In this document: positions 3,255-26,898 of the stretch, one piece after another
Layout: each line of letters starts with the position of its first letter
Numbering within the stretch: position 1 is the stretch's first letter
NCBI GenBank assembly: GCA_030603885.1
Contig: JAUVWW010000004.1
Coordinates: 70,464 to 102,463 of the forward strand
Length of the DNA: 32,000 bases
From: a bacterium
GTDB lineage: Bacteria > Patescibacteriota > JABMPQ01 > JAUVWW01
Direction of reading: 5' to 3'
Made by a program: the position numbers and the translations under genes
The notes under the pieces: generated by a model
The model's database searches: none
Seen by the model: the letters and a program-made list of their open reading frames with translations, nothing else
What the model was told of the DNA's origin: nothing

Positions 3255-4046
3255 CTATCTAATCTTGTTTATTAGATCCATCATATATTTAGAAAATTTC
3301 AAAAGCACTTTTTTATTCCAACTAGTTTCTTTAATTTCTCTCCTCTGAGAAGCTAAAGCATTTTGAATCAGTTCATTAAAATCTGGAATTTTTTTTAATC
3401 CCCAAACCCCTGCTTCATCTTTTGAAGAAACAACTTTCTCTTTTAAATAATAAAAAACTCTGCAAAGATTGAGAATAGCATAAACGGAATCTTTTTGGAT
3501 TGTTTCTTCAATATCTTCTAAATCATAAAGAATGGAGCGGATGTAATACTTTTCTGGAATTTTGTAAAAAACTTCTTTGGTTGGTTTACCATAAATACAA
3601 ATTCCTCTATGAATAGTCACGGTAATGTGAGCCGCTAAATCGGGATCTCTATTTTCTTTTGTATAATCAACTTTGTCTGTTTCATAATCCTGTTTCCAGT
3701 CTTTTGAGTAGTGTAATTCAAAAGGTGTTGGATAAACAAAATCTTTAAGGTATTTTTGTAGAATCACGCTGAATTCAAATTCTTTGCCAGGCAAATGTTC
3801 AGATTTTGAAATATCTAAAATTATTTTAATCAATTTCTTTTTTGTTTCAACTTCTAGTTTATTTTGAACAACCACTAGAAAATCAATATCCCCGGTTTGG
3901 GGATTAAAGCAATCCATTGCTAATGATCCATGTAAATAAATTCCTACTAAATTATCCTGTAGAATGCTTCTGAAATTTTCCACAATCTTGTCTAACAGTT
4001 CTTTGATTTCTTTTGGACAATTCTTATAGCCATAATTTGATATCAT
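3255..4046 (-). CDS. Aminoglycoside nucleotidyltransferase-like protein (AadA/ANT(3'')-ANT(9) type, NTase domain plus DUF4111-like C-terminus)
   Basis: 263 aa, the same size as AadA. NTase motif GIYLHGSLAMDCFNPQTGDIDFLVVV (GS...DxD). The C-terminal helical region is typical of adenylyltransferases. Confidence 0.7.
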   Translation of the reverse strand: MISNYGYKNCPKEIKELLDKIVENFRSILQDNLVGIYLHGSLAMDCFNPQTGDIDFLVVVQNKLEVETKKKLIKIILDISKSEHLPGKEFEFSVILQKYLKDFVYPTPFELHYSKDWKQDYETDKVDYTKENRDPDLAAHITVTIHRGICIYGKPTKEVFYKIPEKYYIRSILYDLEDIEETIQKDSVYAILNLCRVFYYLKEKVVSSKDEAGVWGLKKIPDFNELIQNALASQRREIKETSWNKKVLLKFSKYMMDLINKIR

Positions 4047-4110
4047 AATTCTAAGTTAATCTTTAGAGATAATAAATGTTTTGGATTTAAAGCCCGCCGT
4101 AGCCCAATTG

Positions 4111-4189
4111 CACATAATGTATCCGAATATCTGAAGTTGCGATAGCAATTTGGGTGGAGCGTAGCGGAACCAGATATTCGGTGTTATGT
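4111..4189 (-). repeat. attC-like recombination site B (downstream of the HAD ORF)
   Basis: cACATAAT(4112-4118)-gtat-ccgaatatctg(4123-4133)...cagatattcgg(4171-4181)-t-GTTATGT(4183-4189). The centre carries the ttgc-gata-gcaa hairpin and conserved aatttgggt (4147-4155). Confidence 0.55.
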
Positions 4190-4227
4190 GATGTAAATTT
4201 TTTATCTTTAATTTTTTCTCAAGCTAT

Positions 4228-4896
4228 TTAAATATTTTTTTGCAACTCCTTGATAATTTCATCTGGATTGTTTCCTAAAAACCACCCTTTTTTCTTTGCG
4301 AATTTTTCGATTTCTTCATTATAGCTCCTGACTAAGAAGGCCTTGTCTACTGAATCAAGCATTGGCGCATCGCCCACACTATCTCCAAACGCGATTGAAA
4401 ATACCTGATTATTTGAAATTTCACTTTTTATAACTTCTACTTTTTTATCCTCGTTAAGCAGTAGTTTGATTTTACCGGTGAACCTTTTATCTTTCAGCGC
4501 AAAGGTTGAACAGTATATCTTATCGATTTCCAATACTTCTAATGAGTCAGCAATCATTTCTTCAAACGAGGCCGAAACAACAATGTTTTTAAAATTCATT
4601 GATTTAAGATAACTTGTGACAGGTTTTACCCAACCAGAGATTTTTTTCTTATTACAGGAGATTTTAGCAAACTTCTCAAATTTTTTTTGTGGCCAGCCGA
4701 CAATAATTTCTCCGACTATTTCTGCTATCCCAGATGCAATATCATTATAGTCGGTTGTAGTTTGAAGAATATTTTTGACTTGGTTTTGAAATCTGTCGGT
4801 CTTTAAAACATTTCTTGAGACAAATTCAATAAAGTCTTCGAACGTGTAACCGTCATAAATAGTATTATCGAAATCGAAAAAAGCAATTTTTTGCAT
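4228..4896 (-). CDS. HAD-superfamily hydrolase (subfamily IB / phosphoserine-phosphatase-like)
   Basis: Motif I FFDFDNTIYDG (DxDxT) at the N-terminus and motif IV GDSVGDAPML near the C-terminus. 222 aa. Confidence 0.75.
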   Translation of the reverse strand: MQKIAFFDFDNTIYDGYTFEDFIEFVSRNVLKTDRFQNQVKNILQTTTDYNDIASGIAEIVGEIIVGWPQKKFEKFAKISCNKKKISGWVKPVTSYLKSMNFKNIVVSASFEEMIADSLEVLEIDKIYCSTFALKDKRFTGKIKLLLNEDKKVEVIKSEISNNQVFSIAFGDSVGDAPMLDSVDKAFLVRSYNEEIEKFAKKKGWFLGNNPDEIIKELQKNI

Positions 4897-4982
4897 TTAT
4901 AGTTTTGATAAAAATTATGATTAAATATATCCCTCTTATAGAAAAAACTATCTTGAGAAAAAATCTAACAAAAAATTTATTT

Positions 4983-5076
4983 CATATAACATATCGGGCT
5001 ATGAGATGTTGCGAGCGTTAGCGAGTAATTTGGGTGAGGGCGCTGCAAGGCCCGAACCTCATAGCCCGTGTTATGC
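4983..5076 (-). repeat. attC-like recombination site C (downstream of the APH-like ORF)
   Basis: cATATAAC(4984-4990)-atat-cgggctatgag(4995-5005)...ctcatagcccg(5058-5068)-t-GTTATGC(5070-5076). Conserved aatttgggt at 5027-5035. Confidence 0.55.
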
Positions 5077-5163
5077 GAGGGTGAGGACGAAATCCGAAAG
5101 CGCAGCGTCCCCAAGTGAGTGAAGCGAACGCGGCGTATGACGCAGAGGTGCCGTTCATCAATT
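5077..5163. repeat. GC-rich conserved module, copy 2 (between ORF stop and attC-like site C)
   Basis: Homologous blocks to 3178-3254: gaaagcgcagcgt at 5096-5108, agtgagtgaagcg at 5114-5126, gcagaggtgc at 5142-5151. Confidence 0.5.
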
Positions 5164-6102
5164 TTAAAAAGTGGGGCTACTATAATTTACTGTCTTTGCA
5201 ATCATTTGTTTAACTTCGTTAGAATTTGGCCATCCTAATAAGGTGTCTAAATCATGTTCAAGAGCATACAAATCTAACCTCTTATCTAAATTTTTAAATT
5301 CAAATAGTTCTGGGTAAAATTCCTGAAACCATATTAAAAGTTGAGAGTAATCTTTTTTCTTAGCAAATTTTTCAAATTCTTCAGACATATATTTTTTAGG
5401 ATAATCGACCATTCTTTTGATGATGTCTAAAATAAAATCTATAGATGACAATTCTGTCCTCTCAAAATCTAAAATTCCAACAATTTTATTTTCTTTAACA
5501 AGAATGTTATCAAAATGGGCATCCCAATAAACTAAAGCAATTTTTTGTTCAGTTAAAACATTATGATTAGCCTCTACAAAATTCTTGATTGTTTGTATAA
5601 ACTCAGGTGAAATTATTTTCTTTTCTTCAATTTTTTTTAGTGAATTTTGGATTTGTGAAAGTATTTTGTCATGCCAGTTGACTGAAGAATTTAATTTGAA
5701 CCGTTTTACAAATTTTTCATAGGATGATTTGTTTATTTTTCTTAGAATATCGCAAAGCTGTTTGATTATGTTCTTTCTTTCAGAATTGCTCATGAGGTGC
5801 CATTTTGAATACAAATTATCCCCCTGAATTTTGGGATATATCATGAAAAATTTGTCATAAATCTTTTTTGAATTGTCATATAAGATTATTTTAGGAACAG
5901 GAATTTTATCCTTAAAAAAATCATAAAAAAATACTTCTCTTTCAAATTTTTCTTCATTATCTTCGTCTTCACAGACTTTAAGAATAAACTCATCGTTAAC
6001 TGAATAAACTTCGTTTGTGAACCCAATTCCAATCTTTTTGAAAGATTTAACTTTTCCTAAATTATGCTGAATAAAAATTTGCTCTACAATTTTTTTGTCC
6101 AT
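5164..6102 (-). CDS. Aminoglycoside/choline-kinase-type phosphotransferase (APH family)
   Basis: 312 aa. Catalytic-loop-like YWDAHFDNILV followed by GILDFE (metal-binding D), comparable to HGDxHxGNIL...IDFE of APH-family kinases. The leading His is replaced by Trp. Confidence 0.65.
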   Translation of the reverse strand: MDKKIVEQIFIQHNLGKVKSFKKIGIGFTNEVYSVNDEFILKVCEDEDNEEKFEREVFFYDFFKDKIPVPKIILYDNSKKIYDKFFMIYPKIQGDNLYSKWHLMSNSERKNIIKQLCDILRKINKSSYEKFVKRFKLNSSVNWHDKILSQIQNSLKKIEEKKIISPEFIQTIKNFVEANHNVLTEQKIALVYWDAHFDNILVKENKIVGILDFERTELSSIDFILDIIKRMVDYPKKYMSEEFEKFAKKKDYSQLLIWFQEFYPELFEFKNLDKRLDLYALEHDLDTLLGWPNSNEVKQMIAKTVNYSSPTF

Positions 6103-6510: not shown

Positions 6511-8322
6511 GTGAAAACTATGTTAGAAAATTTATCTACAATTCGAAATTTCTGTATTATCTCCCACATTGACCATGGAAAGTCTACTTTGGCCGATCGT
6601 CTTTTGGAATTGACAAAAACAGTAGAGAAGAGAAAGATGAGGGAGCAAGTGTTGGATCAGATGGATATTGAGAGGGAAAGAGGAATCACTATAAAGCTAC
6701 AGCCAGTGAGAATGGACTATAATCTAAACTCCAAACCCTATACCCTAAATCTAATTGATACTCCTGGTCATGTGGATTTTACTTATGAAGTCTCGAGGAG
6801 CCTGGCTGCTTGTGAGGGAGCTATTCTGCTTGTGGATGCAGCTCAAGGAATTCAGGCTCAGACCTTGTCTAATTATTATTTAGCTAAGGAAGAAGGTTTG
6901 GCTATTATACCAGTGGTTAACAAAATAGATCTGCCCAATGCTCAGCCTGATAAAGTAGCAAAAGATTTAGCTAAGCTTGTAGGGGCAGATGAAAAAGAGG
7001 TAATAAAAATCTCTGCTAAACTAGGAACCAACGTGGAAAAAGTTTTAGAAGCTATTGTGGAGAGAATTCCAGCTCCTAAAGGGAACCTAGAAAAACCTTT
7101 GCAAGCTTTGATTTTCGACTCAATATACGATGAGCACAGAGGTGTAATTGCCTTTGTTAGACTATTTGATGGTCAAATAAAGAAAGAAGAAGAGATAACT
7201 TTGCTTGGCACTAAAAGAGAATCTAAAGTTTTAGAAGTGGGAATATTCAAGCCAGAGCTTCTATCTAAAGATAGTCTAAGCGCTGGTGAGGTAGGCTATA
7301 TTGTGACTGGATTGAAAGAAGTTAAAGATTGTCGAGTTGGAGACACAATTACAATTTCAAACCTCGAGCCTCAAACCTCAGCTCTGCCTGGGTATAAACC
7401 AATCAAACCCATGGTCTTTGCTAGTTTCTTTTGTGCTGAGGGAGAAAATTATCCAAAACTAAAAGAAGGATTAGAAAAACTTTCTTTGAACGATGCTGCT
7501 CTAGGTTTTGAACCAGAGTCATCTAAAGCTTTAGGATTTGGTTTTCGATGTGGATTTTTAGGAGTACTACACATGGAAGTAGTGCAGGAAAGATTAGAAA
7601 GAGAGTACGATTTAGATTTGGTTATTACTGCACCTAGTGTATCCTACAGAGTAAGACCTAAAACTAAGAAACTAGAACTAGAAACTATCCATTCGCCGAC
7701 TGAGCTTCCAGAACCAAGCCAGATTGAAGAGATTCAAGAACCTTGGATAAAAATAGAAATTTTTTCCCCAAATCAATACCTTGGTCCAATAATGCAATTA
7801 GTCGAGAAATCGCGAGGCATATATAAAACAACAGAGTATCTTTCAGAAAGAGTAGCCCTGGTTTATGAAATGCCCCTAGCTTCCCTTATTCGTGATTTTT
7901 ATGATAAACTAAAAAGTGTTTCATCTGGTTATGCCTCTTTAAATTATCAATTTGTTGGATATAGGCCTGCTGATTTAGTTAAACTAGATATCCTGGTTGC
8001 TGGAGAAAAAGTAGAAGCCTTATCTTCGATTGTTCCAAAAGAAGAAGCTTATCGAGAAGGAAGAAGCTTGGTTAAACGCCTAAAAGAAATTATTCCAAGG
8101 CAACTTTTTGAAGTGGCTCTGCAGGCAGCTATTGGTTCTAAAATTATTGCTCGAGAAACCATTTCTGCCTTGAAAAAAGATGTAACAGCTAAACTTTATG
8201 GCGGAGATAGGACCAGAAAAGATAAACTGCTGGCCAAGCAAAGAAAAGGCAAAAAGAGGCTAAAGAGAATTGGGAAAGTAGATATTCCACAGGAAGCGTT
8301 TTTGGCCATATTAAAGAGATAA
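6511..8322 (+). CDS. lepA: Translation elongation factor 4 (LepA)
   Basis: IRNFCIISHIDHGKSTLADRLL, DTPGHVDFTYEVSRSL and NKIDL GTPase motifs. The C-terminal LepA-specific region ends in LYGGDRTRKDKLLAKQRKGKKRLKRIGKVDIPQEAF. GTG start with gaggt 9 nt upstream. Confidence 0.95.
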   Translation: MKTMLENLSTIRNFCIISHIDHGKSTLADRLLELTKTVEKRKMREQVLDQMDIERERGITIKLQPVRMDYNLNSKPYTLNLIDTPGHVDFTYEVSRSLAACEGAILLVDAAQGIQAQTLSNYYLAKEEGLAIIPVVNKIDLPNAQPDKVAKDLAKLVGADEKEVIKISAKLGTNVEKVLEAIVERIPAPKGNLEKPLQALIFDSIYDEHRGVIAFVRLFDGQIKKEEEITLLGTKRESKVLEVGIFKPELLSKDSLSAGEVGYIVTGLKEVKDCRVGDTITISNLEPQTSALPGYKPIKPMVFASFFCAEGENYPKLKEGLEKLSLNDAALGFEPESSKALGFGFRCGFLGVLHMEVVQERLEREYDLDLVITAPSVSYRVRPKTKKLELETIHSPTELPEPSQIEEIQEPWIKIEIFSPNQYLGPIMQLVEKSRGIYKTTEYLSERVALVYEMPLASLIRDFYDKLKSVSSGYASLNYQFVGYRPADLVKLDILVAGEKVEALSSIVPKEEAYREGRSLVKRLKEIIPRQLFEVALQAAIGSKIIARETISALKKDVTAKLYGGDRTRKDKLLAKQRKGKKRLKRIGKVDIPQEAFLAILKR

Positions 8323-8895
8323 ATGAAAAAACTTTCTAAAAAATTTTATGCCCGAGATCCGGCTCAAGTAGCTCAGGAGCTTTTAGGATATATCTTGGTA
8401 AGAAAGCTAAATAAGAAAGCTTTAAAAGGAAGGATAGTGGAAACAGAAGCTTATTATGGTAAAAAAGATCCTGCCTCCCGGGCTTATAAAGGTAAAACAA
8501 AGCTAGCTGAGTTAATGTGGAGCTCGCCAGGGACCATTTTTATTTATATGGTCCATAATAATTGGCTATTTAACATTGTTACTGGCAAGAAAGACCAACC
8601 TTCGGCTGTTTTAATTAGAGCTCTGGAGCCTTTTTGTGGAATAGAACATATGAAAAGAAAAAGAGGGCTAGGTGAAATAAAAAAACTTACCTCTGGACCA
8701 GGCAAGTTTACCCAAGCTTTTGGCTTAACTAAAGCAAAATATCATGGATTAGATATTACAAACATTAAAGATTTATATGTTGTAAGTGGTATAAAGAAAT
8801 TCGAGGTCAGAAGAAGTAAAAGAATAGGAGTAAGCCGAGATTTATCTCGAAATTTGAGATTTTATATAAAAGGAAATGAATTTGTATCTAGATAA
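8323..8895 (+). CDS. DNA-3-methyladenine glycosylase (Mpg/AAG family)
   Basis: FYARDPAQVAQELLGYILV...GRIVETEAYYGKKDPASRAY...SAVLIRALEP matches the MPG-family pattern. The ATG directly follows the lepA stop. Confidence 0.85.
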   Translation: MKKLSKKFYARDPAQVAQELLGYILVRKLNKKALKGRIVETEAYYGKKDPASRAYKGKTKLAELMWSSPGTIFIYMVHNNWLFNIVTGKKDQPSAVLIRALEPFCGIEHMKRKRGLGEIKKLTSGPGKFTQAFGLTKAKYHGLDITNIKDLYVVSGIKKFEVRRSKRIGVSRDLSRNLRFYIKGNEFVSR

Positions 8896-8905
8896 TTAGT
8901 AATAA

Positions 8906-8934
8906 TTGACTTTTAGAAAAAATTCTGTTACAAT
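8906..8934 (+). promoter_or_regulatory. Sigma70-type promoter
   Basis: TTGACT(8906-8911)-17 nt-TACAAT(8929-8934). It lies about 112 nt upstream of the 9047 ORF. Confidence 0.5.
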
Positions 8935-9046
8935 AGATTAGCGGAGTAGAGGAGCCAGGAGCCAAGCAATCATTCCAAAACAGATCAAAATGGTGAGTAT
9001 AATTAATATAATCCTTTTAATTGTTCCTTTTTTCATAGTTTAAGTT

Positions 9047-9637
9047 ATGTTTAAAGAATATTTTAGTCAAGAGCTAAAAGAAGGCGAAAAAGTAATAACT
9101 GTCATCAGAAAGCATTGGGCAAGCTTCCTTGGGCCTGTGATTAAAATTATAATTCTGCTTGTTATTCCTTTATTCTTCATGGGTTTCCTCTTTGCTCATG
9201 CCTTAGGAGTGCTTATATTTTTCGTTTGGGAGGCCGTAGCTTTAGCCTATGCCATTCATTCTTGGATCACTTGGTATTTTGATTGTTTTGTTATCACCGA
9301 TCAAAGGATTATTGATATTGATCAAAGAAGTACTTTTTCTAGAGAAGTGTCTGAGACTGCTTTAGCCAATATTCAAGATGTAACTTATAAAGTAGAAGGA
9401 GTATTGGCGACTATATTTAATTATGGAACAGTGGAAGTTCAAACAGCAGGGGCAAATCAGAAAATAGAAATAGATTGTGTTTTTGATCCAAAGGGTATCC
9501 AGGATTTAGTAGTTGGTGTACAAAAAGCTTCTGGAGCTGGTAAACTTGGCGGAGAAATGACAGCCAAAGAGCTAATTGAATTTATTGCTAAAGTAAAGAA
9601 AGAAGTGGAACAGGCGAAGGTTAAAGGAGAACAATAA
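9047..9637 (+). CDS. Membrane protein with bacterial PH (bPH_2/YdbT-like) domain
   Basis: EGEKVITVIRKHWASFLGPVIK followed by two TM helices, then ITDQRIIDIDQRS...VEVQTAG, as in YdbS/YdbT-type PH-domain proteins. Confidence 0.6.
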   Translation: MFKEYFSQELKEGEKVITVIRKHWASFLGPVIKIIILLVIPLFFMGFLFAHALGVLIFFVWEAVALAYAIHSWITWYFDCFVITDQRIIDIDQRSTFSREVSETALANIQDVTYKVEGVLATIFNYGTVEVQTAGANQKIEIDCVFDPKGIQDLVVGVQKASGAGKLGGEMTAKELIEFIAKVKKEVEQAKVKGEQ

Positions 9638-9703
9638 TATGAACGAAGTGAATATTTCAAGGTTCTCCAAAAGAGGTTCTTATAATATATTAGCATATAT
9701 ATC

Positions 9704-10102
9704 ATGTTATACAAGAGGAAAAGAACATTTTTAGAGAGATTAAGCTCCATGAGATTTCTTCTGATTGGTGGTTTAATATTTTTGATCTTTATTTCTATTG
9801 GGCTTTCAAAGGAAGTTCTAAGAAGGCATCAAATTAACAAAGAGATTGAAAGAGTTAAAAAAGAGATTGAAGACCTAGAAAAGAAAAATCAGGAACTTTC
9901 TTCTTTAGTAGATTATCTTTCCACAGAATCTTTTAAAGAAATACAAGCGAGAAGAGAACTTGGTTTTCAAAAAGAAGGGGAAACTGCTATTTCTATTCAG
10001 TCTAAAGAAGAGGAAGGAGAGGAAGTGAAAGAAGGAGAACAAAAAGAGGAGATATCTAGTTCTAAAAAATGGTGGAATTATTTCTTTGCTTCTAGGAGAT
10101 AG
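9704..10102 (+). CDS. Septum formation initiator (FtsB/DivIC-like)
   Basis: Single N-terminal TM helix, a coiled coil INKEIERVKKEIEDLEKKNQELSSLVDYL, then ESFKEIQARRELGFQKEGE, typical of FtsB/DivIC. Confidence 0.7.
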   Translation: MLYKRKRTFLERLSSMRFLLIGGLIFLIFISIGLSKEVLRRHQINKEIERVKKEIEDLEKKNQELSSLVDYLSTESFKEIQARRELGFQKEGETAISIQSKEEEGEEVKEGEQKEEISSSKKWWNYFFASRR

Positions 10103-10158
10103 ATAATAAAAGCTATTATAACAAAAAAGAGACCCTTTTAGGCACCCTCTTTTTTATT

Positions 10159-10233
10159 TGGAGCCGGCGACAGGATTCGAACCTGTGACTTGCTCTTTAC
10201 GAAAGAGCCACTCTACCACTGAGTTACGCCGGC
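10159..10233 (-). tRNA. tRNA-Thr (anticodon CGU), CCA encoded
   Basis: The reverse complement folds as gccggcg-ta-actc-agtggta-gagt-g-gctct-ttCGTaa-agagc-aagtc-acagg-ttcgaat-cctgt-cgccggc-t-cca. Confidence 0.9.
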
Positions 10234-10703
10234 AAATTTTTCGTAATTTTAATTTTATAATTTAGAAAATTTTTCTCTTCTTTGTCGAACCAAAAATCTC
10301 CTTTAAATTTTTTATTTTTTAAAAGTAAAGGAAGCCAATATTGATCATCAGGCCACATATAATCATAAGGTATCTGATCAATGGTTACCCATTTTAGCAT
10401 GCCTTCCTGGTTTGCTTTTGGTGAGCCGGAAAAAGAGTCAGTGGAAAAAATATAGACAATCCAGTCTGGCTTGGCTTTGTTGATGAAATGAAAATTCAAT
10501 TGGCCATGGCTGGCAATGCTTTTAATTATTAATCCAGTTTCCTCAGAAACCTCTCTCTTGGCAGCTTCTTCTGGTGTCTCATTACCTTTTATTTTTCCTC
10601 CGGGAGCATTCCATTTTCCACCACCAAAAAGTTTTTTCTTTTTTCTCTGAAGTAGGATCTTATTTCTTTTTCTTACATGGCAAAGAATGGCACGAACTGG
10701 CAT
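10224..10703 (-). CDS. Nudix hydrolase (MutT-like)
   Basis: Nudix box GGKIKGNETPEEAAKREVSEETGL (GX5EX7REUXEEXGU). The last 3 codons and the stop overlap the 5' acceptor arm of tRNA-Thr. Confidence 0.85.
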   Translation of the reverse strand: MPVRAILCHVRKRNKILLQRKKKKLFGGGKWNAPGGKIKGNETPEEAAKREVSEETGLIIKSIASHGQLNFHFINKAKPDWIVYIFSTDSFSGSPKANQEGMLKWVTIDQIPYDYMWPDDQYWLPLLLKNKKFKGDFWFDKEEKNFLNYKIKITKNLPA

Positions 10704-10721
10704 AATTATAAAATAAATTTT

Positions 10722-10796
10722 TGGAGCGGGAGACGGGGATCGAACCCGCGATCTCTTCCTTGGGAAGGAAGCATTCTACCACTGAACTACTCCCGC
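10722..10796 (-). tRNA. tRNA-Gly (anticodon CCC), CCA encoded
   Basis: The reverse complement folds as gcgggag-ta-gttc-agtggta-gaat-g-cttcc-ttCCCaa-ggaag-agatc-gcggg-ttcgatc-cccgt-ctcccgc-t-cca. Confidence 0.9.
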
Positions 10797-10839
10797 AAAT
10801 CGTTTTTATTATATTACTATTTGTTTCATTTGTAAAGCC

Positions 10840-10868
10840 TTGAATTATTGCTAAATAGATGTTAAAAT
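10840..10868 (+). promoter_or_regulatory. Sigma70-type promoter ahead of the baeRF-to-tRNA-Gln gene string
   Basis: TTGAAT(10840-10845)-17 nt-TAAAAT(10863-10868), 27 nt before the ATG at 10895. Confidence 0.45.
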
Positions 10869-10894
10869 GGATATATAAGTTCTTAATTTAAATT

Positions 10895-11989
10895 ATGCTC
10901 AACATCCAGGAGATCAAAACTCTTGAAGAAATCAAAACAAAAACTCCATCTATCATCAGTCTTTATCTAAACTGTGATCAAAGAGTCAGGACACCAGAGC
11001 AGATAAGGATTACCTTAAAGAATTTGTCAAAAGAGATTGAAGCTAAAGCAGACAAGAGAACATTGTCTAAGATTAAAGATTACATCAAGTTGAGACTTAA
11101 GCCAGGGACAAGAGGGCTGGCTTTTTTTGTTTGTCCCAAGATAGATCTTTGGAAAATTTATGAAGTGCCCCGGGCTTTTTTCAATCAAGTAGTTTGCGAT
11201 ACCTCACCCTATACAAGACCTCTTATAAAACTCTTAGATGAATTTGAAAGATATTGCGTAGTGGTATTAGACAAAGAAAAAGCCAGAGTGTTTACTGTTT
11301 ATCTTGGAGAAATTGAGGAACGCAAAGATGTATTTAGCCTTCCTAAATTTCCAGGAAAGCACGATCAAGGAGGATGGCGTCAGGCTAGGATGCAAAGACA
11401 TACAGAAGTTCACATAACGAGACTTATTAATAGCATAGCCAAGCAAATATTTTCATTTTTTAGAAAGAACAATTTTGATCGTCTTATTATAGCTGGCTCA
11501 AAAGAAGTGCTGCCTGAATTTGAGAAGAATATTCATTCTTACCTAAAGCAGCGTCTGGCTGGTAAATTTCTTACGGAAATGTTTATGCCCTTGAAACACT
11601 TCTTGGATCAATCTTTAAAAATAGAAGAGCAAGTGGAGAGGCAGAAGGAGAGTGAGTTAGTTAGTAAATTGAAAGAGAGCATAGGCAGAGCAAAGGGTGT
11701 GACTGGACTTGGCAAAGTTTTGTCTGCCGCTCAAAGAAAAGAGCTTCAAACTTTGCTTGTATTAATTGGATTTAGAAGAAAAGGCAAAGTTTGTGATGAT
11801 TGTGGTTTTATTAGTATCATCCCTCAACTAAAAGTCTGTCCTTATTGTAAAGAAAAGATGAAGGAGGCTGAGGATGTTATTGAAAGGCTACTTGAAGTAG
11901 CTTTAGAACAAGATGCTAAGGTAGAGTTTGTGAAAGATAACAAGGATTTAGAGAAGATGGGAAATATAGGAGCAATTTTAAGATTTTAA
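10895..11989 (+). CDS. Bacterial eRF1/Pelota-like protein (baeRF / Vms1-like release-factor fold) with inserted zinc ribbon
   Basis: 364 aa. GG-containing loop KHDQGGWRQARMQRH where eRF1-fold hydrolases carry GGQ or GxxQ. CDDCG...CPYC zinc ribbon. The C-terminal KMGNIGAILRF resembles the end of eRF1 domain 3. Assigned from memory of the baeRF/VLRF1 literature. Confidence 0.6.
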   Translation: MLNIQEIKTLEEIKTKTPSIISLYLNCDQRVRTPEQIRITLKNLSKEIEAKADKRTLSKIKDYIKLRLKPGTRGLAFFVCPKIDLWKIYEVPRAFFNQVVCDTSPYTRPLIKLLDEFERYCVVVLDKEKARVFTVYLGEIEERKDVFSLPKFPGKHDQGGWRQARMQRHTEVHITRLINSIAKQIFSFFRKNNFDRLIIAGSKEVLPEFEKNIHSYLKQRLAGKFLTEMFMPLKHFLDQSLKIEEQVERQKESELVSKLKESIGRAKGVTGLGKVLSAAQRKELQTLLVLIGFRRKGKVCDDCGFISIIPQLKVCPYCKEKMKEAEDVIERLLEVALEQDAKVEFVKDNKDLEKMGNIGAILRF

Positions 11990-11993
11990 TAGT

Positions 11994-12632
11994 ATGATTT
12001 TTAAAGATCGCATTGAGGCTGGTCAAAAGCTGGCCAAGGCTTTAGAAAAATACAAAGGACAAAAAGATACTATTATTTTAGGCTTGCCTCGAGGAGGAGT
12101 AGTGACTGGATTTGAAATAGCCAAGACCTTAGAGCTACCCTTAGATTTAGTTGTGCCTCGAAAAATCGGAGCTCCAGGTAATCCAGAATTTGCTATTGGA
12201 GCTATTACCGAAGAAGGGGAAGGGATTTTTAATGAGGGAGTGATAAGAGATTATGAAATTTCAAAAGAATATATTACAGGGACTGTGGAAGAGGAGAAAA
12301 AAGAAGCCCAAAGAAGACTTAAGACTTACCGAGGTGATCGATCACCTCTAGATTTAAAAGATAAAACAGTTATCCTAGTCGATGATGGCATTGCTACTGG
12401 TCTGACCATGCGAGTAGCTATTAAATCTGTAAAAAATAAAGATCCTAAGAAAATTGTAGTAGCTGTTCCTTGTGGAGCCAAAGACTCTATAGATCAGATA
12501 AAAAAAGACGTAGACGAAGTAATCTGCCTCCACGCTCCTATATTTTTTGGAGCAGTTGGTGCCTTTTATCGAGAATTTCCCCAGACCACAGATGAAGAGG
12601 TGATAGAGTTAATGAAGGAAAGCAAAAAGTAA
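11994..12632 (+). CDS. Phosphoribosyltransferase-family protein, paralogue 1
   Basis: FKDRIEAGQKLAKAL...ILGLPRGGVVTG and PRPP loop VILVDDGIATGLTM. 212 aa. Confidence 0.8.
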   Translation: MIFKDRIEAGQKLAKALEKYKGQKDTIILGLPRGGVVTGFEIAKTLELPLDLVVPRKIGAPGNPEFAIGAITEEGEGIFNEGVIRDYEISKEYITGTVEEEKKEAQRRLKTYRGDRSPLDLKDKTVILVDDGIATGLTMRVAIKSVKNKDPKKIVVAVPCGAKDSIDQIKKDVDEVICLHAPIFFGAVGAFYREFPQTTDEEVIELMKESKK

Positions 12633-12642
12633 ATCATTTTAT

Positions 12643-13281
12643 ATGATTTATAAAGACAGAACCGAAGCCGGACAAAAACTGGCAAAAGAGTTAGAAAAAT
12701 ATAAAGATAAAAATGTCATCGTCTTTGCTATTCCCAATGGGGGAGTACCAGTAGGATTTGAAATAGCTAAGAAGTTGGAATGTTCTTTGGATGTGATGAT
12801 AGTTCGAAAAATTCTTTACCCTTGGACCACCGAGGCTGGTTTTGGAGCAGTGGATCCAGAAGGAGGGGTTATTTTGGAGAAAGGTATACTTACCCAGTTA
12901 GGTATTACTAAGAGAATTATAGATGCTCAAGTAGAAAAAGCCAAGCAACAACTTAAAGGAAAAATTAAAAAATTTAGAAAAGAAAAAACTTATCCTGAAC
13001 TGAGAGGAAAAACAGCAATATTAGTAGATGATGGTCTGGCCACAGGATACTCTATGTTAGTATCTCTTAGATTTCTAAAAAAGAAGAAGCCAGATAAAAT
13101 TATTGTGGCTGTTCCCACTGCATCTCAAGGTGCATATGAAAAAATAAAGAAAGAAACAGATGAAATAGTTTGTCCAGATGTCAGAAGCGGCTTTCCTTTT
13201 GCCGTAGCTGATGCTTACAAAAAGTGGCATGATGTACCTGATGAGGAAGTTCTAGAATATTTAAAGAGAGTAAAAAAGTAA
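12643..13281 (+). CDS. Phosphoribosyltransferase-family protein, paralogue 2
   Basis: YKDRTEAGQKLAKEL...AIPNGGVPVG and AILVDDGLATGYSM. The same length (212 aa) as its neighbour and colinear with it. Confidence 0.8.
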   Translation: MIYKDRTEAGQKLAKELEKYKDKNVIVFAIPNGGVPVGFEIAKKLECSLDVMIVRKILYPWTTEAGFGAVDPEGGVILEKGILTQLGITKRIIDAQVEKAKQQLKGKIKKFRKEKTYPELRGKTAILVDDGLATGYSMLVSLRFLKKKKPDKIIVAVPTASQGAYEKIKKETDEIVCPDVRSGFPFAVADAYKKWHDVPDEEVLEYLKRVKK

Positions 13282-13282
13282 A

Positions 13283-14008
13283 ATGTCTAAGGTTTATATT
13301 GGTACATCAGGTTGGGCATATAACCATTGGATAGATGTATTTTACCCAGAAGATCTAAAACAAAAGGATTGGCTTGATTTTTATACCAAGCATTTTTCAA
13401 CTGTAGAACTTAATACCTCTTTTTATCACTTGCCTAAACCAAAGACTTTTTCTAATTGGAGAGCTCAAACGTCAAAAGATTTTATTTTTGCCGTCAAAAC
13501 CTCAAGATTCATCACCCACGTAAAGAAAATAAGAAATTGTAAGGAGCCTTGGAAGAGATTTATTGATTCTGCTAAAAATTTAAAAGAAAATTTAGGTCCA
13601 ATTTTATTTCAGCTTCCTCCTTTTCTGAAAGCTAATCCAAAAGTACTGGAAGATTTTTTAAAGATATTACCCAAGAAAAAATATTTATATGTTTTAGAAC
13701 CTCGGCATAAATCTTGGTTTGCAGATGATATTTACAAAATTTTAAAAAAGTATAACGTTGCTTTATGTATTGCTGACTCTCCTCAATGGCCTACTGAAGA
13801 AGTAATTACTTCAGATTTTATCTATATCCGTTTTCATGGAGGACAGATTCTTTACGGAAGTGAATATTCTTTGAATGAACTTAAAGTCTGGGCCAGGAAA
13901 ATTAAAAAATGGTTAAAACAAAAATTGGATGTTTATGTTTATTTCAACAACGATGCTGGCGGGTACGCAGTGAAGAATGCGAAACAACTAATAAAACTTG
14001 TTAAATGA
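13283..14008 (+). CDS. DUF72 (UPF0759/YecE-like) protein
   Basis: YIGTSGWAYNHWIDVFYP...FSTVELNTSFY...ILFQLPP matches the DUF72 family pattern. Confidence 0.8.
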   Translation: MSKVYIGTSGWAYNHWIDVFYPEDLKQKDWLDFYTKHFSTVELNTSFYHLPKPKTFSNWRAQTSKDFIFAVKTSRFITHVKKIRNCKEPWKRFIDSAKNLKENLGPILFQLPPFLKANPKVLEDFLKILPKKKYLYVLEPRHKSWFADDIYKILKKYNVALCIADSPQWPTEEVITSDFIYIRFHGGQILYGSEYSLNELKVWARKIKKWLKQKLDVYVYFNNDAGGYAVKNAKQLIKLVK

Positions 14009-14880
14009 AAAAACAAATACAGACCAAACTTCTTTTTCCTCAAATCCTCAAAAAACGTTCTCCGGAGGTTCATAAAAAAGCCTTGGCTAAGGTTTTGGTT
14101 GTGGCTGGATCAAAAGGAATGACTGGGGCCGCTGTTTTAGTATGTAAAACGGCCTATAGAGCTGGAGCAGGTATGGTTTGTCTTGCTTTTCCTGAAAGTC
14201 TCAAAGAGATTTATAAAGATCTTTTGCCTGAAGCCTTGACTTTGCCTTGTCCGACAACAAAGCAGGGAACTTTATCTAAAAGAGCCCTAAAGCCGATTTT
14301 AGAAAAATCAAAAGAATACGATGTGGTAGCCATTGGTCCTGGACTTTCTCAAAATCCAGAAACACAGCTGTTAATAAGGAACCTACTACCAAAGCTAGAA
14401 AAACCTGTTATACTAGATGCAGATGGATTGAATGCCATAAAAGAGGCTAGGATTTTACGCCAGAGAAAAATTCCTACTGTTATCACTCCTCATCCAGGAG
14501 AGATGGCCAGATTGCTTGGTATTAGGGTTGAGGCAGTGCAAAAAGACAGAGAGCATATTGCAGTTGGAGCAGCTAAGAAATTTAGAGCTATAGTCGTTTT
14601 AAAAGGTTACAACACTGTTGTTGCTTCCAAGCAGGGTAATGTAGTAGTTAATAAAACCGGTGGTCCAGCTTTGGCCACTGCAGGAACTGGGGATGTACTT
14701 TTAGGAATTATGTCTGTCCTTTGGGCAGAGAACCTAGCTTATCCTTTTGAGTCAGCAGCCACAGCAGTTTATCTTCATGGTCTGGCTGGAGATTTAGCAG
14801 CCAAAGAATTAGGCGAGCGAGCAGTGATAGCTTCAGATGTGATTAAATATTTACCAGTGACTTTTAAGATTTCTATATGA
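14005..14880 (+). CDS. nnrD: ADP-dependent NAD(P)H-hydrate dehydratase (YjeF C-terminal domain)
   Basis: VLVVAGSKGMTGAAVL, GPGLSQN, TPHPGEMARL and GGPALATAGTGDVLLG motifs. 4-nt ATGA overlap with DUF72. Confidence 0.85.
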   Translation: MKKQIQTKLLFPQILKKRSPEVHKKALAKVLVVAGSKGMTGAAVLVCKTAYRAGAGMVCLAFPESLKEIYKDLLPEALTLPCPTTKQGTLSKRALKPILEKSKEYDVVAIGPGLSQNPETQLLIRNLLPKLEKPVILDADGLNAIKEARILRQRKIPTVITPHPGEMARLLGIRVEAVQKDREHIAVGAAKKFRAIVVLKGYNTVVASKQGNVVVNKTGGPALATAGTGDVLLGIMSVLWAENLAYPFESAATAVYLHGLAGDLAAKELGERAVIASDVIKYLPVTFKISI

Positions 14881-15293
14881 AAAAATACGAAATCCTCGAA
14901 CATACCGCCGATCTAGAAATAAAAGCTTATGGAAAAGATCTAAAAGAGCTCTTTTGTAATATTGCCGAAGGAATGTTTTATAGTATCAGCCCTAAAACTG
15001 TAAAGGCTAAAATGATAAAGCCGCAAAAGAGAGAAAAGATTAGTATTAGCTCTTCAGACAGAGAAGCTTTACTTGTAGATTGGCTTAATGAACTTTTATA
15101 TCTTTATAATATCTCAAGACAGATATATATTGATTTCAAAATATCTAAACTTACTGACACAGAACTCGAAGCAGAGGTTTTAGGTGTTACTCCGGAGGAA
15201 GAAGAGGTATTAATCAAAGCAGCTACCTATCATGGTTTAAAGATAGAAAAGAAAGACGAAGTGTGGCAAGCAACTGTGGTATTCGATATATAA
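14877..15293 (+). CDS. Archease (RtcB activator)
   Basis: YEILEHTADLEIKAYGKDLKELF...IKAATYHGLKI...VVFDI is the archease signature. It overlaps nnrD by 4 nt. Confidence 0.9.
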   Translation: MKKYEILEHTADLEIKAYGKDLKELFCNIAEGMFYSISPKTVKAKMIKPQKREKISISSSDREALLVDWLNELLYLYNISRQIYIDFKISKLTDTELEAEVLGVTPEEEEVLIKAATYHGLKIEKKDEVWQATVVFDI

Positions 15294-15320
15294 AATAATA
15301 GTAATCTAGTAATAAAAATT

Positions 15321-16790
15321 GTGTCCAATCAAAAAGAGATTACAAAAAAGGATCTTAAAAAAATTGAAGATTATCTTTATGAAATTCCTAAAACTTTTAG
15401 ATCTGATATGAGAGTTCCAGCCAGAGTCTATACTGATGAGAAAATGTTAGATCAGATTTTTAGAGATAGATCTTTAGGACAGACAGTCAATGTTACTACC
15501 TTGCCGGGCATAGTAAAGTATAGTTTAGCCATGCCCGATGTTCACGAGGGCTATGGTTTTCCTATTGGTGGAGTAGCTGCCACTAATATTGCCAAAGGAG
15601 GAGTGATATCTCCTGGTGGAATTGGCTATGATATAAATTGCGGCATAAGACTAATTACTTCTCAAATAAATTACGATGAGATCAAGCCTTACTTAGAAGA
15701 AGTTATGAATCAGCTTTATAGAGATGTGCCCTGCGGAGTAGGCAGGGGAGGAGAGCTAAAGCTTGATTTTGCTGAATTAAATAAAGTCTTAGAAGAAGGG
15801 GTGAGCTGGGCAGTGAAGAAAGGTTATGCTACTAAAGAAGATCAGGAACATACAGAGCATAATGGACAGATGCTTGAGGCTAATCCAGACAATGTTTCTA
15901 AGAGAGCTAAAGAAAGAGGCCGAGGGCAACTTGGATCTTTGGGATCGGGAAATCATTTTTTAGAAGTACAAAGAGTGGCTAAGATTTTTGATGAAGAGAT
16001 TGCCAAAGTCTTTGGCTTATACAAAGATCAAGTGATAGTTATGATTCATTGTGGCTCACGAGGCTTAGGTCATCAAGTTTGCACTGATTATATTAAAACA
16101 ATGATGCCTGCTTTAGAAAAATATAAAATTACTCTTCCCGACAGAGAACTTGTTTGTGTTCCCTTTTCATCAGCCGAAGGAAAAAAATATTTCGGAGCCA
16201 TGGCAGCAGCAGCTAACTACGCTTGGACTAATAGACAGATAATTTTAAACACAGTTCGACAATCTTGGGAAAGAGTACTTAAAGGAAAAGTTAAAGATAC
16301 TGGCCTTAAAATGGTATATGATATTACCCACAATATAGGAAAGAGAGAAAAACACATCGTTGATGGAAAAGAGATGGATTTATGTGTTCACAGAAAAGGA
16401 GCCACCAGAGCCTTTGCTCCAGGAAGACCTGAGGTACCTTCTGATTATCAAAAAGTTGGACAGCCGGTTCTAATTCCTGGCTGCATGGGAACTTCATCTT
16501 TTATATTAGTAGGCACAGAGAAAGCTATGGAAACTACCTGGGGTTCAGTCTGTCATGGGGCAGGAAGAGCCATGTCTAGATCAGCTGCCAAAAGAAAAGT
16601 TTGGGGAGCAACCTTAAGGCAAGAGTTAGAGAAGAAAGGAATCGTGATTAGATGTAGAAGTAACGCTGGTTTGGCAGAAGAAGCCCCTATTGCTTATAAA
16701 AATATTGATGTTGTAGTAAATATAGTCTGTAAAGCTGGGCTAGCTAAGAAAGTAGCCCAGATGGTGCCCATTGGGGTGGTCAAGGGATAA
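15321..16790 (+). CDS. rtcB: RNA 3'-phosphate/2',3'-cyclic-phosphate ligase RtcB
   Basis: MPDVHEGYGFPIGGV, GIGYDINCG, GSGNHFLEVQ, HCGSRGLGHQV and SVCHGAGR motifs. GTG start. Confidence 0.95.
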   Translation: MSNQKEITKKDLKKIEDYLYEIPKTFRSDMRVPARVYTDEKMLDQIFRDRSLGQTVNVTTLPGIVKYSLAMPDVHEGYGFPIGGVAATNIAKGGVISPGGIGYDINCGIRLITSQINYDEIKPYLEEVMNQLYRDVPCGVGRGGELKLDFAELNKVLEEGVSWAVKKGYATKEDQEHTEHNGQMLEANPDNVSKRAKERGRGQLGSLGSGNHFLEVQRVAKIFDEEIAKVFGLYKDQVIVMIHCGSRGLGHQVCTDYIKTMMPALEKYKITLPDRELVCVPFSSAEGKKYFGAMAAAANYAWTNRQIILNTVRQSWERVLKGKVKDTGLKMVYDITHNIGKREKHIVDGKEMDLCVHRKGATRAFAPGRPEVPSDYQKVGQPVLIPGCMGTSSFILVGTEKAMETTWGSVCHGAGRAMSRSAAKRKVWGATLRQELEKKGIVIRCRSNAGLAEEAPIAYKNIDVVVNIVCKAGLAKKVAQMVPIGVVKG

Positions 16791-17107
16791 TGAAAATTCA
16801 AAATCTTACTAAATTTCAAAAACGAGTACTTGGTTTGGTTAGACAGATTCCAAAGGGTAAAGTAACGACTTATAAAATGATAGCTAAAGTTTTAAGGAGG
16901 CCCAAGGCTCAGAGAGCAGTGGGAAATGCTCTAAATAAAAATCCAAAGCCAATCAAGATCCCTTGTCATCGAGTAGTTAGATCCAACGGTCAAATTGGTA
17001 GCTATAAACTTGGGCAAAGAAAAAAGATTAAACTTTTAGAGAGAGAAGAAATTATTATTAAAAATAAGAGAGTTCAAGAGCTAGACAAATATCTCTTTAG
17101 ATGGTAA
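16790..17107 (+). CDS. ogt: Methylated-DNA-protein-cysteine methyltransferase, C-terminal (DNA-binding/active-site) domain only
   Basis: IPKGKVTTYKMIA...AVGNALNKNPKPIKIPCHRVVRSNG with the PCHRV active-site cysteine. 105 aa, with no N-terminal domain. Confidence 0.8.
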   Translation: MKIQNLTKFQKRVLGLVRQIPKGKVTTYKMIAKVLRRPKAQRAVGNALNKNPKPIKIPCHRVVRSNGQIGSYKLGQRKKIKLLEREEIIIKNKRVQELDKYLFRW

Positions 17108-17118
17108 AATAATAATAT

Positions 17119-17192
17119 TCCGGGGTCGTCTAATGGTAGGACGTCAGGTTTTGATCCTGAAAATTTTGGTTCGAATCCAAGCCCCGGAGCCA
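17119..17192 (+). tRNA. tRNA-Gln (anticodon UUG), CCA encoded
   Basis: tccgggg-tc-gtct-aatggta-ggac-g-tcagg-ttTTGat-cctga-aaat-tttgg-ttcgaat-ccaag-ccccgga-g-cca. Confidence 0.9.
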
Positions 17193-17196
17193 TTTT

Positions 17197-17223
17197 TGGC
17201 TTAAATAAGCCATTTTTTATTTT
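17197..17223 (+). terminator. Palindrome TGGCTTAAATAAGCCA plus T-run (terminator of the long operon)
   Basis: 16-nt perfect palindrome at 17197-17212 followed by ttttttatttt. Confidence 0.5.
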
Positions 17224-17300: not shown

Positions 17301-17471
17301 ATGGCAGAAGAAATCACAGCCTATTGCGTTAAATGCAAGGCTAAAAAAGTGATGAAAGACCCTCAAGAGGTGACCATGAAAGGAAAGGGTGGTACGACAA
17401 GAAGAGCTATGAAGGGCACCTGTCCTGACTGTGGAACCACCATGTTCAGAATCATGGGCAAGAAGGATTAA
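17301..17471 (+). CDS. DUF5679-like zinc-ribbon protein (56 aa)
   Basis: Below the ORF-track size cutoff. My own translation is MAEEITAYCVKCKAKKVMKDPQEVTMKGKGGTTRRAMKGTCPDCGTTMFRIMGKKD*. It has CxxC...CxxC, matching the short DUF5679 proteins of Actinobacteria and CPR. Confidence 0.65.
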   Translation: MAEEITAYCVKCKAKKVMKDPQEVTMKGKGGTTRRAMKGTCPDCGTTMFRIMGKKD

Positions 17472-22345: not shown

Positions 22346-22388
22346 AAAGGGTGTTGGCATGATGTCGACACCCTTTATTTTTTTATTT
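22346..22388 (+). terminator. Rho-independent terminator of island 1
   Basis: aaagggtgttg / cgacacccttt stem (22346-22356 with 22366-22376) followed by attttttttattt. Confidence 0.65.
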
Positions 22389-22415
22389 GATTTTAAGGTA
22401 AAAATATGCTACAAT
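22387..22415 (+). promoter_or_regulatory. Extended -10 sigma70-type promoter
   Basis: TTGATT(22387-22392)-17 nt ending in atgc-TACAAT(22410-22415). Confidence 0.5.
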
Positions 22416-26873: not shown

Positions 26874-26898
26874 AAACTTAGCCTAGATATGCTACAAT
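26870..26898 (+). promoter_or_regulatory. Extended -10 sigma70-type promoter
   Basis: TTGAAA(26870-26875)-17 nt ending in atgc-TACAAT(26893-26898). Confidence 0.5.

Follow-up and report, generated by a model that had tools for sequence, protein, structure and literature searches.

Gene neighbourhood of a glutamine-loop aeRF1-like protein in Patescibacteria: a phosphoribosyltransferase partner and a loose link to archease-RtcB

Bacterial proteins that resemble the archaeo-eukaryotic release factor aeRF1 have only recently been shown to be ribosome hibernation factors. Here, we describe a string of eight genes, headed by one for such a protein (protein 1), in a 32,000-nt stretch of a Patescibacteria genome (contig JAUVWW010000004.1, positions 70,464 to 102,463 of the forward strand; this whole stretch is referred to as the window, and its numbering is used below). 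The string also encodes archease and the RNA ligase RtcB, and a preliminary description had read it as a candidate system for ribosome rescue and RNA repair. We find that the link to RtcB is loose, lineage-specific and already described for the hibernation factor Balon. What is new is an uncharacterised subfamily of family 10 of the bacterial aeRF1 homologues (baeRF) with a glutamine loop and a zinc ribbon, its pairing with a phosphoribosyltransferase (PRTase) of the TT1426 type, and its pairing with ArfB in sister lineages.

Gene order and transcription signals

The string consists of eight + strand open reading frames (ORFs) between 10895 and 17107, which follow one another with spacings of 4, 10, 1, -4, -4, 27 and -1 nt, and then after 11 nt by a tRNA-Gln(UUG). 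A recheck placed all eight ORFs, with their spacings, where the preliminary description had them; the domain identities of all eight proteins were recovered above the Pfam gathering scores, and the same recheck reproduced the promoter, the tRNA-Gln and the terminator.

The first gene (10895-11989) encodes protein 1, 364 amino acids long and assigned to baeRF-1 family 10 (PF18854) by Pfam and to the aeRF1 fold by fold search. It is followed by PRT1, a TT1426-type PRTase (11994-12632; PF00156, 76 bits; PDB 1wd5, E 3e-42), and by PRT2, a divergent PRT1 paralogue (12643-13281; PF00156, 73 bits). The next gene specifies a DUF72 protein, a TM1631-like TIM barrel (13283-14008; PF01904, 263 bits; PDB 1vpq, E 4e-28), for which a link to Endo IV-like nucleases is a computational prediction only (PMC3828134). 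NnrD, the ADP/ATP-dependent NAD(P)H-hydrate dehydratase and by family assignment a metabolite-repair enzyme (14005-14880; PF01256 (Carb_kinase), 195 bits; TIGR00196, 224 against a cutoff of 129.85), overlaps by 4 nt with the gene of archease, the RtcB cofactor (14877-15293; PF01951, 124 bits; PDB matches 1jw3 and 4n2p). Then come RtcB itself, an archaeal/eukaryotic-type 3'-phosphate/5'-OH RNA ligase whose gene starts with GTG (15321-16790; PF01139, 585 bits), and a minimal Ogt of 105 amino acids that comprises the C-terminal alkyltransferase domain only (16790-17107; PF01035, 108 bits; TIGR00589, 94 against a cutoff of 46.4) and retains the active-site cysteine in PCHR when aligned to 2g7h. 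Beyond the tRNA-Gln(UUG) (17119-17192, +; ARAGORN; Rfam, 62.6 bits), a scan detected an intrinsic-terminator-like hairpin (TGGCTTAAATAAGCCA) with a T-run (17197-17222, +), and an equivalent site follows the tRNA in the closest relative, locus L081.

On the other side, the promoter region of the string is bounded by a divergent tRNA-Gly(CCC) (10722-10796, -), with a tRNA-Thr(CGU) (10159-10233, -) further upstream and outside the operon, both found by ARAGORN and Rfam. These three tRNAs were all that an Rfam search recovered, with no leader, riboswitch or tmRNA. The GC content of the window is 35.8% and uniform across the region.

Packing alone is weak evidence for shared function, since genes outside the string are often spaced just as closely or overlap (-61, -4, -1, 0 and 16 nt elsewhere in the window). 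Generic scans were uninformative: sigma-70 sites were not above chance in this AT-rich sequence (28 against 24.4 +/- 5.1 expected), and predicted terminators were no better than in shuffles. A clade-derived promoter signature was used instead, for which the regions upstream of the orthologous gene were aligned from nine Patescibacteria loci. This footprint, TTGAAw-17-TGnTAnAAT, is kept upstream of the baeRF gene in 8/9 loci, with divergent flanks, and in the window it corresponds to TTGAAT, 17 nt and an extended -10 element TGtTAAAAT (10840-10868, +). Of the clade signature TTGA-N15-17-TGnTAnAAT, the window contains four copies, compared to 0.18 expected, and none of 100 shuffles reached four. 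All four copies (8906-8934, 10840-10868, 22387-22415 and 26870-26898) are on the + strand, intergenic and just upstream of genes, which makes the signature a usable operon-start marker for this genome. With a conserved promoter at its head and, in the scan of the window, no copy of the signature inside it, the string looks like one transcription unit, and its eight ORFs are probably transcribed from this single promoter. This bears out the earlier proposal of a single gene string, which has a single conserved promoter at its head, ends with a terminator beyond the tRNA and internally shows neither a recognisable promoter nor a recognisable terminator.

The tRNA-Gln is a different matter. On the + strand of the 10.8-17.2 kb region, the extended -10 element occurs only twice, at the head of the string and at 17102-17110, where TGgTAAAAT stands 9 nt before the 5' end of the tRNA. 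The full promoter-like site (TAGACA-17 nt-TGgTAAAAT; 17082-17110, +), found by the scan, overlaps the Ogt stop codon, and the same element precedes tRNA-Gln in L081. The tRNA therefore probably has a promoter of its own as well, and shares its terminator with the string. We found no evidence supporting the tRNA as a functional member of the string, as first suggested; we rejected such a role because of its own conserved promoter-like element together with the fact that it does not stand beside RtcB in other lineages. Just past the terminator, in an intergenic island of its own, lies a 56-amino-acid zinc-ribbon ORF (17301-17471, +; DUF5679, 46.6 bits).

Fold, family and loop of protein 1

Protein 1 scores 101 bits on PF18854 (baeRF_family10), compared to a cutoff of 27.1, with weaker matches to eRF1 domains 2 and 3. 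Its best match by sequence in the PDB is Msmeg1130, the Balon of Mycobacterium smegmatis (8v9j; residues 14-363, E 9.7e-10), and eRF1 is reached at about 1e-5. An AlphaFold (AF2) model built on 41 homologues is confident (predicted local distance difference test score, pLDDT, 87.6; predicted template modelling score, pTM, 0.74), with disorder only at loop residues 153-161, after which a long helix follows. When this model was compared to the PDB with Foldseek, Msmeg1130 ranked at the top (2e-25), followed by aRF1 (4e-21) and Psychrobacter urativorans Balon (2e-19), with eRF1, Rv2629 (1e-15) and Pelota (~1e-10) in the lower ranks; the matches to Msmeg1130, aRF1, eRF1 and Balon are full-length, with E from 1e-25 to 1e-15. 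The model thus predicts the three-domain architecture of aeRF1, namely, an N domain, a central RNase-H-like M domain whose loop, in this superfamily, points to the peptidyl-transferase centre, and a Pelota-type C domain, which bears out the original call of a baeRF-type eRF1 fold. The accompanying zinc ribbon is formed by C300, C303, C315 and C318, invariant among close homologues. We rejected an identity as Pelota/Dom34, the fold matches being 10-15 orders of magnitude weaker than those to aRF1 or Balon.

The relation to the hibernation factors is also visible at the family level. Msmeg1130, whose sequence was reconstructed exactly from the alignment, scores 124.6 bits on PF18854 and so belongs to the same Pfam family as protein 1. 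A sequence search with Msmeg1130 fails to reach the other two solved Balons (E<0.01), to which Msmeg1130 is less close than it is to protein 1; the experimentally confirmed factors thus span a sequence range that includes protein 1. On the strength of the modelled fold, we regard protein 1 as a putative A-site factor related to Balon and Msmeg1130.

Protein 1 does not qualify as a classical aRF1/eRF1, because it stays below the cutoff of the aRF1 model TIGR03676 and lacks both NIKS and GGQ. Inspection of its N domain found no NIKS, the motif that reads stop codons; the conserved residues in this domain of the family are SLYLNxDQ and PYxxPL. As to the N-domain HP motif with which Balon contacts A1492 and A1913, the three solved Balons are mutually unalignable by sequence; the position aligned with 'IHPL' of Msmeg1130 reads 'TRPL' in protein 1. 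Similarly, the RF-1 domain (PF00472) gave no match. For the VLRF1 clade, to which Vms1/ANKZF1, a peptidyl-tRNA hydrolase/nuclease of ribosome quality control, belongs, the acVLRF1 profile PF18859 matches weakly, at 26.4 bits just under the cutoff of 27.1, the loop sequence GGW(S/R)Q fits GGxSQ/GxxQ, and NCBI labels some homologues of protein 1 'Vms1/Ankzf1 family'. However, the architecture of protein 1 is that of aeRF1, with all three domains, and not that of VLRF1.

The loop itself, PGKHDQGGWRQARMQRH (residues 153-169), occupies the position of GGQ in eRF1. The literal tripeptide is absent, and in its place stands an invariant HxQGGW(S/R)Q loop of fixed length; Msmeg1130 reads ERAGQMREQ at this site. 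Among 120 homologues found by similarity, the only set on which motif frequency was measured, GGxxQ is kept in 87, the full HxQGG[WLFY]xQ in 79 and the CxxC...CxxC zinc ribbon in 70; the homologues that bear the motif show almost no variation at H156, G159, G160 and Q163. Protein 1, with GGWRQ (residues 159-163; 11369-11383), is the sole member with Arg among 86 motif-bearing homologues, the others having mostly Ser (69) or Ala (15) at this position. We confirmed at least 567 genomic matches to the motif of this GGW(S)Q and zinc-ribbon subfamily. To our knowledge, no glutamine-loop member of baeRF-1 family 10 has been characterised, and only bacterial aeRF1-like proteins without this glutamine have been studied. 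The large branch that combines the glutamine loop with the ancestral zinc ribbon is an obvious place to ask if some bacterial aeRF1 homologues still release peptides. Most baeRF-1 families have no catalytic glutamine, family 10 being noted for retaining one and for being a possibly active hydrolase, and GGxSQ, which the loop of the protein 1 family fits, has been reported for the aVLRF1 and acVLRF1 families (PMC6514570). The definition of Balon-type factors, on the other hand, rests in part on their lacking NIKS and GGQ (PMC10901736); a lasso loop and a bL27 trap take the place of a GGQ-type catalytic loop in them. By its sequence, protein 1 may either park the ribosome or release the peptide.

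Conserved and variable neighbours

Gene order in the relatives (designated by L numbers, with percentages giving identity to protein 1) indicates that the conserved partner of protein 1 in its clade is the TT1426-type PRTase, not RtcB. The preliminary description had overlooked this, granting the PRTases accessory roles. The baeRF and PRTase genes are directly adjacent in seven loci (the window, L081, L130, L004, L140, L082 and L129) that span 38-82% identity; a spacing of 1-8 nt between the two genes is kept across this range. In three of these, the PRTase is all that follows, namely, in L140 (47%, 6-nt gap), L130 (42%, 1-nt gap) and L004 (38%, 8-nt gap). PRT1, which resembles Thermus thermophilus TT1426 (1wd5), a PRTase without an assigned substrate, is 65-72% identical across many classes of the candidate phyla radiation (CPR), while PRT2 is confined to the window, L081, L129 and L082. 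The baeRF-PRTase pair is not mentioned in PMC6514570 or PMC10901736.

In sister Patescibacteria, the PRTase is replaced by a bona fide ArfB (NF006718, 131.5 bits against a cutoff of 100), which directly follows baeRF after gaps of ~38-97 nt. This arrangement is found in L086 (10001-11534), L131 (10001-11591) and L132 (10001-11532), all at 42-44% identity, and in L090. The baeRF-ArfB pairing appears to be previously undescribed, and both it and the PRTase pairing offer concrete, testable partners for the subfamily.

Longer versions of the string are confined to close relatives. L081 (82%) has the identical eight genes and tRNA-Gln, with gaps of 4, 88, 9, -4, 132, 17 and 25 nt. Its 132-nt gap, between NnrD and archease (L081 14097-14228), where the window has a 4-nt overlap, is a GC-rich insert with inverted-repeat flanks (GGCCTCGGGTACACC...GGTGTACCACTCGGCC) and could be a short element, either mobile or structured. 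In L129 (53%), baeRF is followed by two PRT genes, an alpha/beta-hydrolase, DUF72, NnrD, archease and RtcB. L082 (49%) has the first PRT, then the second with DUF72 and NnrD, and between the two PRTase genes a stretch of ~6.7 kb (L082 3054-9309) with five co-directional genes without a Pfam match.

Elsewhere among the orthologous loci, the genes downstream of baeRF vary: besides ArfB, they are NnrD (L083, 43%), paralogues with a phosphoenolpyruvate (PEP)-utilizer domain (L001, 43%) or an ABC transporter (L002, 41%). Tandem arrays of two to four paralogues of ~470-520 amino acids, in which only a C-terminal PEP-utilizers mobile domain is recognisable, follow either baeRF or baeRF-PRTase in L001 (11124-16976), L004 (12696-15643) and L130 (10956-13825). 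Upstream, the order LepA, bPH, DivIC and divergent tRNA-Thr and tRNA-Gly is kept throughout the Patescibacteria relatives, the tRNA pair being seen in L081, L083, L086, L132, L001 and L002. In view of this phylum-wide flanking synteny and the uniform GC content, we rejected a mobile or defence island.

The RtcB of the string is closely related to archaeal and eukaryotic enzymes, with 600 bits to Pyrococcus horikoshii RtcB and 452 bits to human RTCB; it is also close to T. thermophilus TTHA1785 and ~60% identical to thousands of homologues. Its gene is adjacent to that of archease, with a 27-nt gap, and the two are also adjacent in L081, L129, L137, L138 and L103. Archease-RtcB occurs without baeRF in L135 and L137-L139. 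In one Parcubacteria and one Uhrbacteria contig, the order is SPP-archease-RtcB-DnaE; the opposite strand carries a PRT1-type PRTase (290-310 bits) at a distance of 2-3 kb, and up to 8 kb from archease-RtcB there is no baeRF gene. From these comparisons, the string joins two separately conserved Patescibacteria neighbourhoods.

The linkage to rtcB extends beyond this genome: it is seen in L081 and L129 and, independently, in a metagenome contig of 68% GC (L103 7930-11116) where archease-RtcB (-) is divergent from baeRF (+) with 84 nt between them; the L103 protein is 30% identical to protein 1 and retains GGWSQ, and the fragment L125 is arranged likewise. As the 41-sequence alignment was too diverse, the genome scan used a subset of 23 sequences and, via the loop-motif pattern, yielded 80 species-level loci, mostly from Chloroflexota and Actinomycetota with four from Patescibacteria, a sample biased towards motif-bearing proteins. 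Within 10 kb on either side of these, RtcB, archease and Ogt were each found in 0/80, PRTase and NnrD in two each and DUF72 in 17, of which 16 were upstream on the same strand in Anaerolineae. A metagenome scan, which yielded few close relatives, placed RtcB near 2/41 loci, both representing one lineage. The baeRF-RtcB association is real but rare.

The Anaerolineae loci have an arrangement of their own. In L028 (~7700-11116) and 16 others (L013-L064), DUF72, an AmmeMemoRadiSam-type radical SAM gene (TIGR04337, 347 bits against a cutoff of 220) and a family 10 baeRF form a conserved same-strand trio, in which the radical SAM stop codon stands ~18 nt before the baeRF start.

Comparison with known systems and readings of the string

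Protein 1 shares with the Balon-type factors the bacterial aeRF1 fold, the three domains and the lack of NIKS, and Msmeg1130, a member of PF18854, is its best match in both sequence and fold. Balon genes, in addition, lie in operons with stress and repair genes, and RtcB is among their recurrent neighbours (Helena-Bueno et al., Nature 2024, PMC10901736). Unlike these factors, protein 1 carries, at the place of the Balon beta-hairpin, a zinc ribbon with four cysteines, and its subfamily carries an invariant GGxxQ loop that none of Balon, Msmeg1130 and Rv2629 possesses. With baeRF-1 family 10 as defined by Burroughs and Aravind (2019; PMC6514570), it has in common the loop glutamine and the clade's zinc-ribbon site, whereas HPF is the recurrent neighbour reported there and no PRTase, DUF72 or ArfB is mentioned.

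The combination of an aeRF1-like factor with RtcB is also less novel than initially supposed. Besides the Balon-RtcB adjacency (PMC10901736), there is a precedent in Mycobacterium tuberculosis, where the Balon homologue Rv2629 and the RtcB Rv2631 lie in one co-regulated DosR block, Rv2623-Rv2631 (PMC5309233). The DosR regulon further holds a putative PRTase, Rv0571c (PMC5309233), which is set beside PRT1 here by description only. In contrast with the string, this block belongs to a different phylum, and Rv2629 falls on a different branch among the baeRF relatives.

In PrfH-RtcB2 (PMC9304027, PMC9223846), too, the genes of a protein resembling release factors and of an RtcB ligase run in the same direction within one string, with rescue and RNA ligation as the common concept, and protein 1 had been proposed to stand in for PrfH at the corresponding place, as a non-orthologous replacement. 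This idea is not borne out. PrfH is a homologue of the bacterial class-I release factors and has a fold unrelated to the aeRF1 fold of protein 1. The RtcB of the string is of the archease-dependent type and fails the PrfH-linked model TIGR03073 (release_rtcB; 145.7 bits against a cutoff of 271.8), and four genes intervene between protein 1 and the archease-RtcB pair. Nor is the string a mobile, sporadically distributed two-gene cassette; its linkage is loose and lineage-specific, baeRF occurring without RtcB in 80/80 genome loci and in most Patescibacteria loci. The RtcB-archease tRNA ligases of archaea and eukaryotes are alike in the close similarity of RtcB and the adjacent archease; the host here, however, is a bacterium without known splicing-endonuclease substrates, so the role of RtcB in the string is presumably RNA repair.

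We favour, with a probability of roughly one in two, the reading that protein 1 is a ribosome A-site stress factor co-expressed with general maintenance and repair genes. Under stress, protein 1 would enter the A site without reading the mRNA, as it has no NIKS, and by analogy with Balon, which with EF-Tu(GDP) occupies the A site of 70S ribosomes whether vacant or translating, it would probably be delivered by EF-Tu. Placed at the peptidyl-transferase centre, its conserved HxQGGW(S/R)Q loop would withdraw the ribosome from elongation. Broken tRNA and rRNA would be joined by RtcB and archease, which would serve the cell as a general RNA ligase; the coupling of this ligase to protein 1 would consist in co-expression within a maintenance or recovery operon, much as for mycobacterial Rv2629-Rv2631, rather than in a dedicated two-step machine of the PrfH-RtcB2 type. 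The neighbourhoods compared above point to baeRF and the TT1426-type PRTase as the conserved core, and to DUF72, NnrD, archease-RtcB, Ogt and tRNA-Gln as a general maintenance and repair block joined to it in this lineage and located elsewhere in other Patescibacteria.

Several points weigh against the A-site stress factor. The curated NCBIfam families of ribosome hibernation factors, named after Balon, MSMEG_1130 and Rv2629 (NF052287, NF052288 and NF052289), match protein 1 over its full length but far below all three thresholds (82.2/330, 68.3/480 and 48.6/320 bits), and protein 1 does equally well on the aRF1 model TIGR03676 (83.6 against a cutoff of 234.7). Balon's commonest neighbour, HPF/RaiA, is not encoded in the 32-kb window, and neither are ArfB or SmpB. 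This reading presupposes stress induction and transcription as a single unit. Between fixed anchors, the loop is exactly 20 residues long in 78/86 motif-bearing homologues (standard deviation, 1.7), compared to 20-60 residues in 32 motif-less ones (standard deviation, 7.9), and such a fixed-length glutamine-loop pattern has been taken as a sign of peptidyl-hydrolase activity, with family 10 named (PMC6514570). Finally, the independent, directly adjacent and divergent baeRF/archease-RtcB pair of L103 hints at a link tighter than co-expression.

These last two points also count in favour of a dedicated sequential system analogous to PrfH-RtcB2, in which protein 1 would hydrolyse peptidyl-tRNA on nuclease-stalled ribosomes and RtcB-archease would religate the cut rRNA or tRNA. 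The invariant HxQGGW(S)Q loop at the GGQ position would suit such a role, as would its fit to GGxSQ of aVLRF1/acVLRF1 and the singling out of family 10 as potentially active (PMC6514570); the string is kept at 82% and 53% identity, L103 adds an independent case, and the gene that comes next in sister lineages encodes ArfB, a genuine rescue hydrolase, in keeping with a stalled-ribosome theme. A neighbouring ArfB would, however, be redundant if protein 1 were itself a rescue hydrolase. The proposal that the factor releases stalled ribosomes also runs counter to its closest characterised relatives, since Msmeg1130, Rv2629 and Balon keep peptidyl-tRNA bound to the ribosome instead of releasing it, and all characterised bacterial aeRF1 homologues are non-hydrolytic (PMC10901736). 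In addition, the RtcB is not the PrfH-type paralogue but an archaeal-type enzyme that other Patescibacteria have without baeRF, four unrelated genes separate it and archease from protein 1, and its scarcity near family 10 genes speaks against a dedicated pair. By a rough estimate, the two independent clades with co-localisation among ~120 loci are close to the 0.5-1 expected by chance within 10 kb on either side; the immediate adjacency in L103 would be less likely by chance, at ~0.1 expected. Taken together, we consider a dedicated rescue-and-repair system unlikely.

At the other extreme, the proximity of protein 1 and RtcB could be meaningless, reflecting a housekeeping super-operon in a streamlined, strand-biased CPR genome with few promoters. 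Unrelated genes elsewhere in the window are packed just as tightly, the LepA-bPH-DivIC-tRNAs-baeRF order is syntenic across Patescibacteria while the downstream genes are shuffled, PRT1 and RtcB are conserved across CPR like core genes, and PRT1 lies near archease-RtcB even where baeRF is absent. Yet aeRF1-like genes are found near RtcB in three unrelated settings, namely, this clade, L103 and Rv2629-Rv2631 (PMC5309233; PMC10901736). The string, with NnrD, RtcB and Ogt, and the genes just upstream of it, with Mpg and a NUDIX hydrolase, also have a damage-control theme, and the 1-8 nt spacing of baeRF and PRTase across such divergent proteins suggests selection for co-translation. Mere packing seems to us a rather doubtful explanation.

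A bolder reading would make the GGW(S)Q/zinc-ribbon subfamily not a Balon-like parking factor but a catalytically active aeRF1-type factor on stalled ribosomes, either a peptidyl-tRNA hydrolase or a Vms1-like tRNA 3'-end nuclease, that works with the TT1426-type PRTase; its lineage-specific links to RtcB-archease or ArfB would then mark a so far undescribed bacterial rescue pathway that originated in archaea. We think this improbable.

Three further features of the window deserve mention. Just upstream of the string (6511-10703) lie other damage-control and translation-stress genes, namely, those of LepA/EF4, the methylpurine-DNA glycosylase Mpg and a NUDIX hydrolase, and the repair flavour that these lend to the region together with NnrD, RtcB and Ogt may be coincidental. 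The NUDIX hydrolase gene (10224-10703, -) is inserted between tRNA-Thr(CGU) and tRNA-Gly(CCC), which are directly adjacent in L081, L083, L002 and L132. Between MurJ and LepA (3255-6102, -), genes for an AadA_C/nucleotidyltransferase, a HAD hydrolase and an APH-family phosphotransferase form a block that resembles aminoglycoside-modifying enzymes and is missing at that position in L081.

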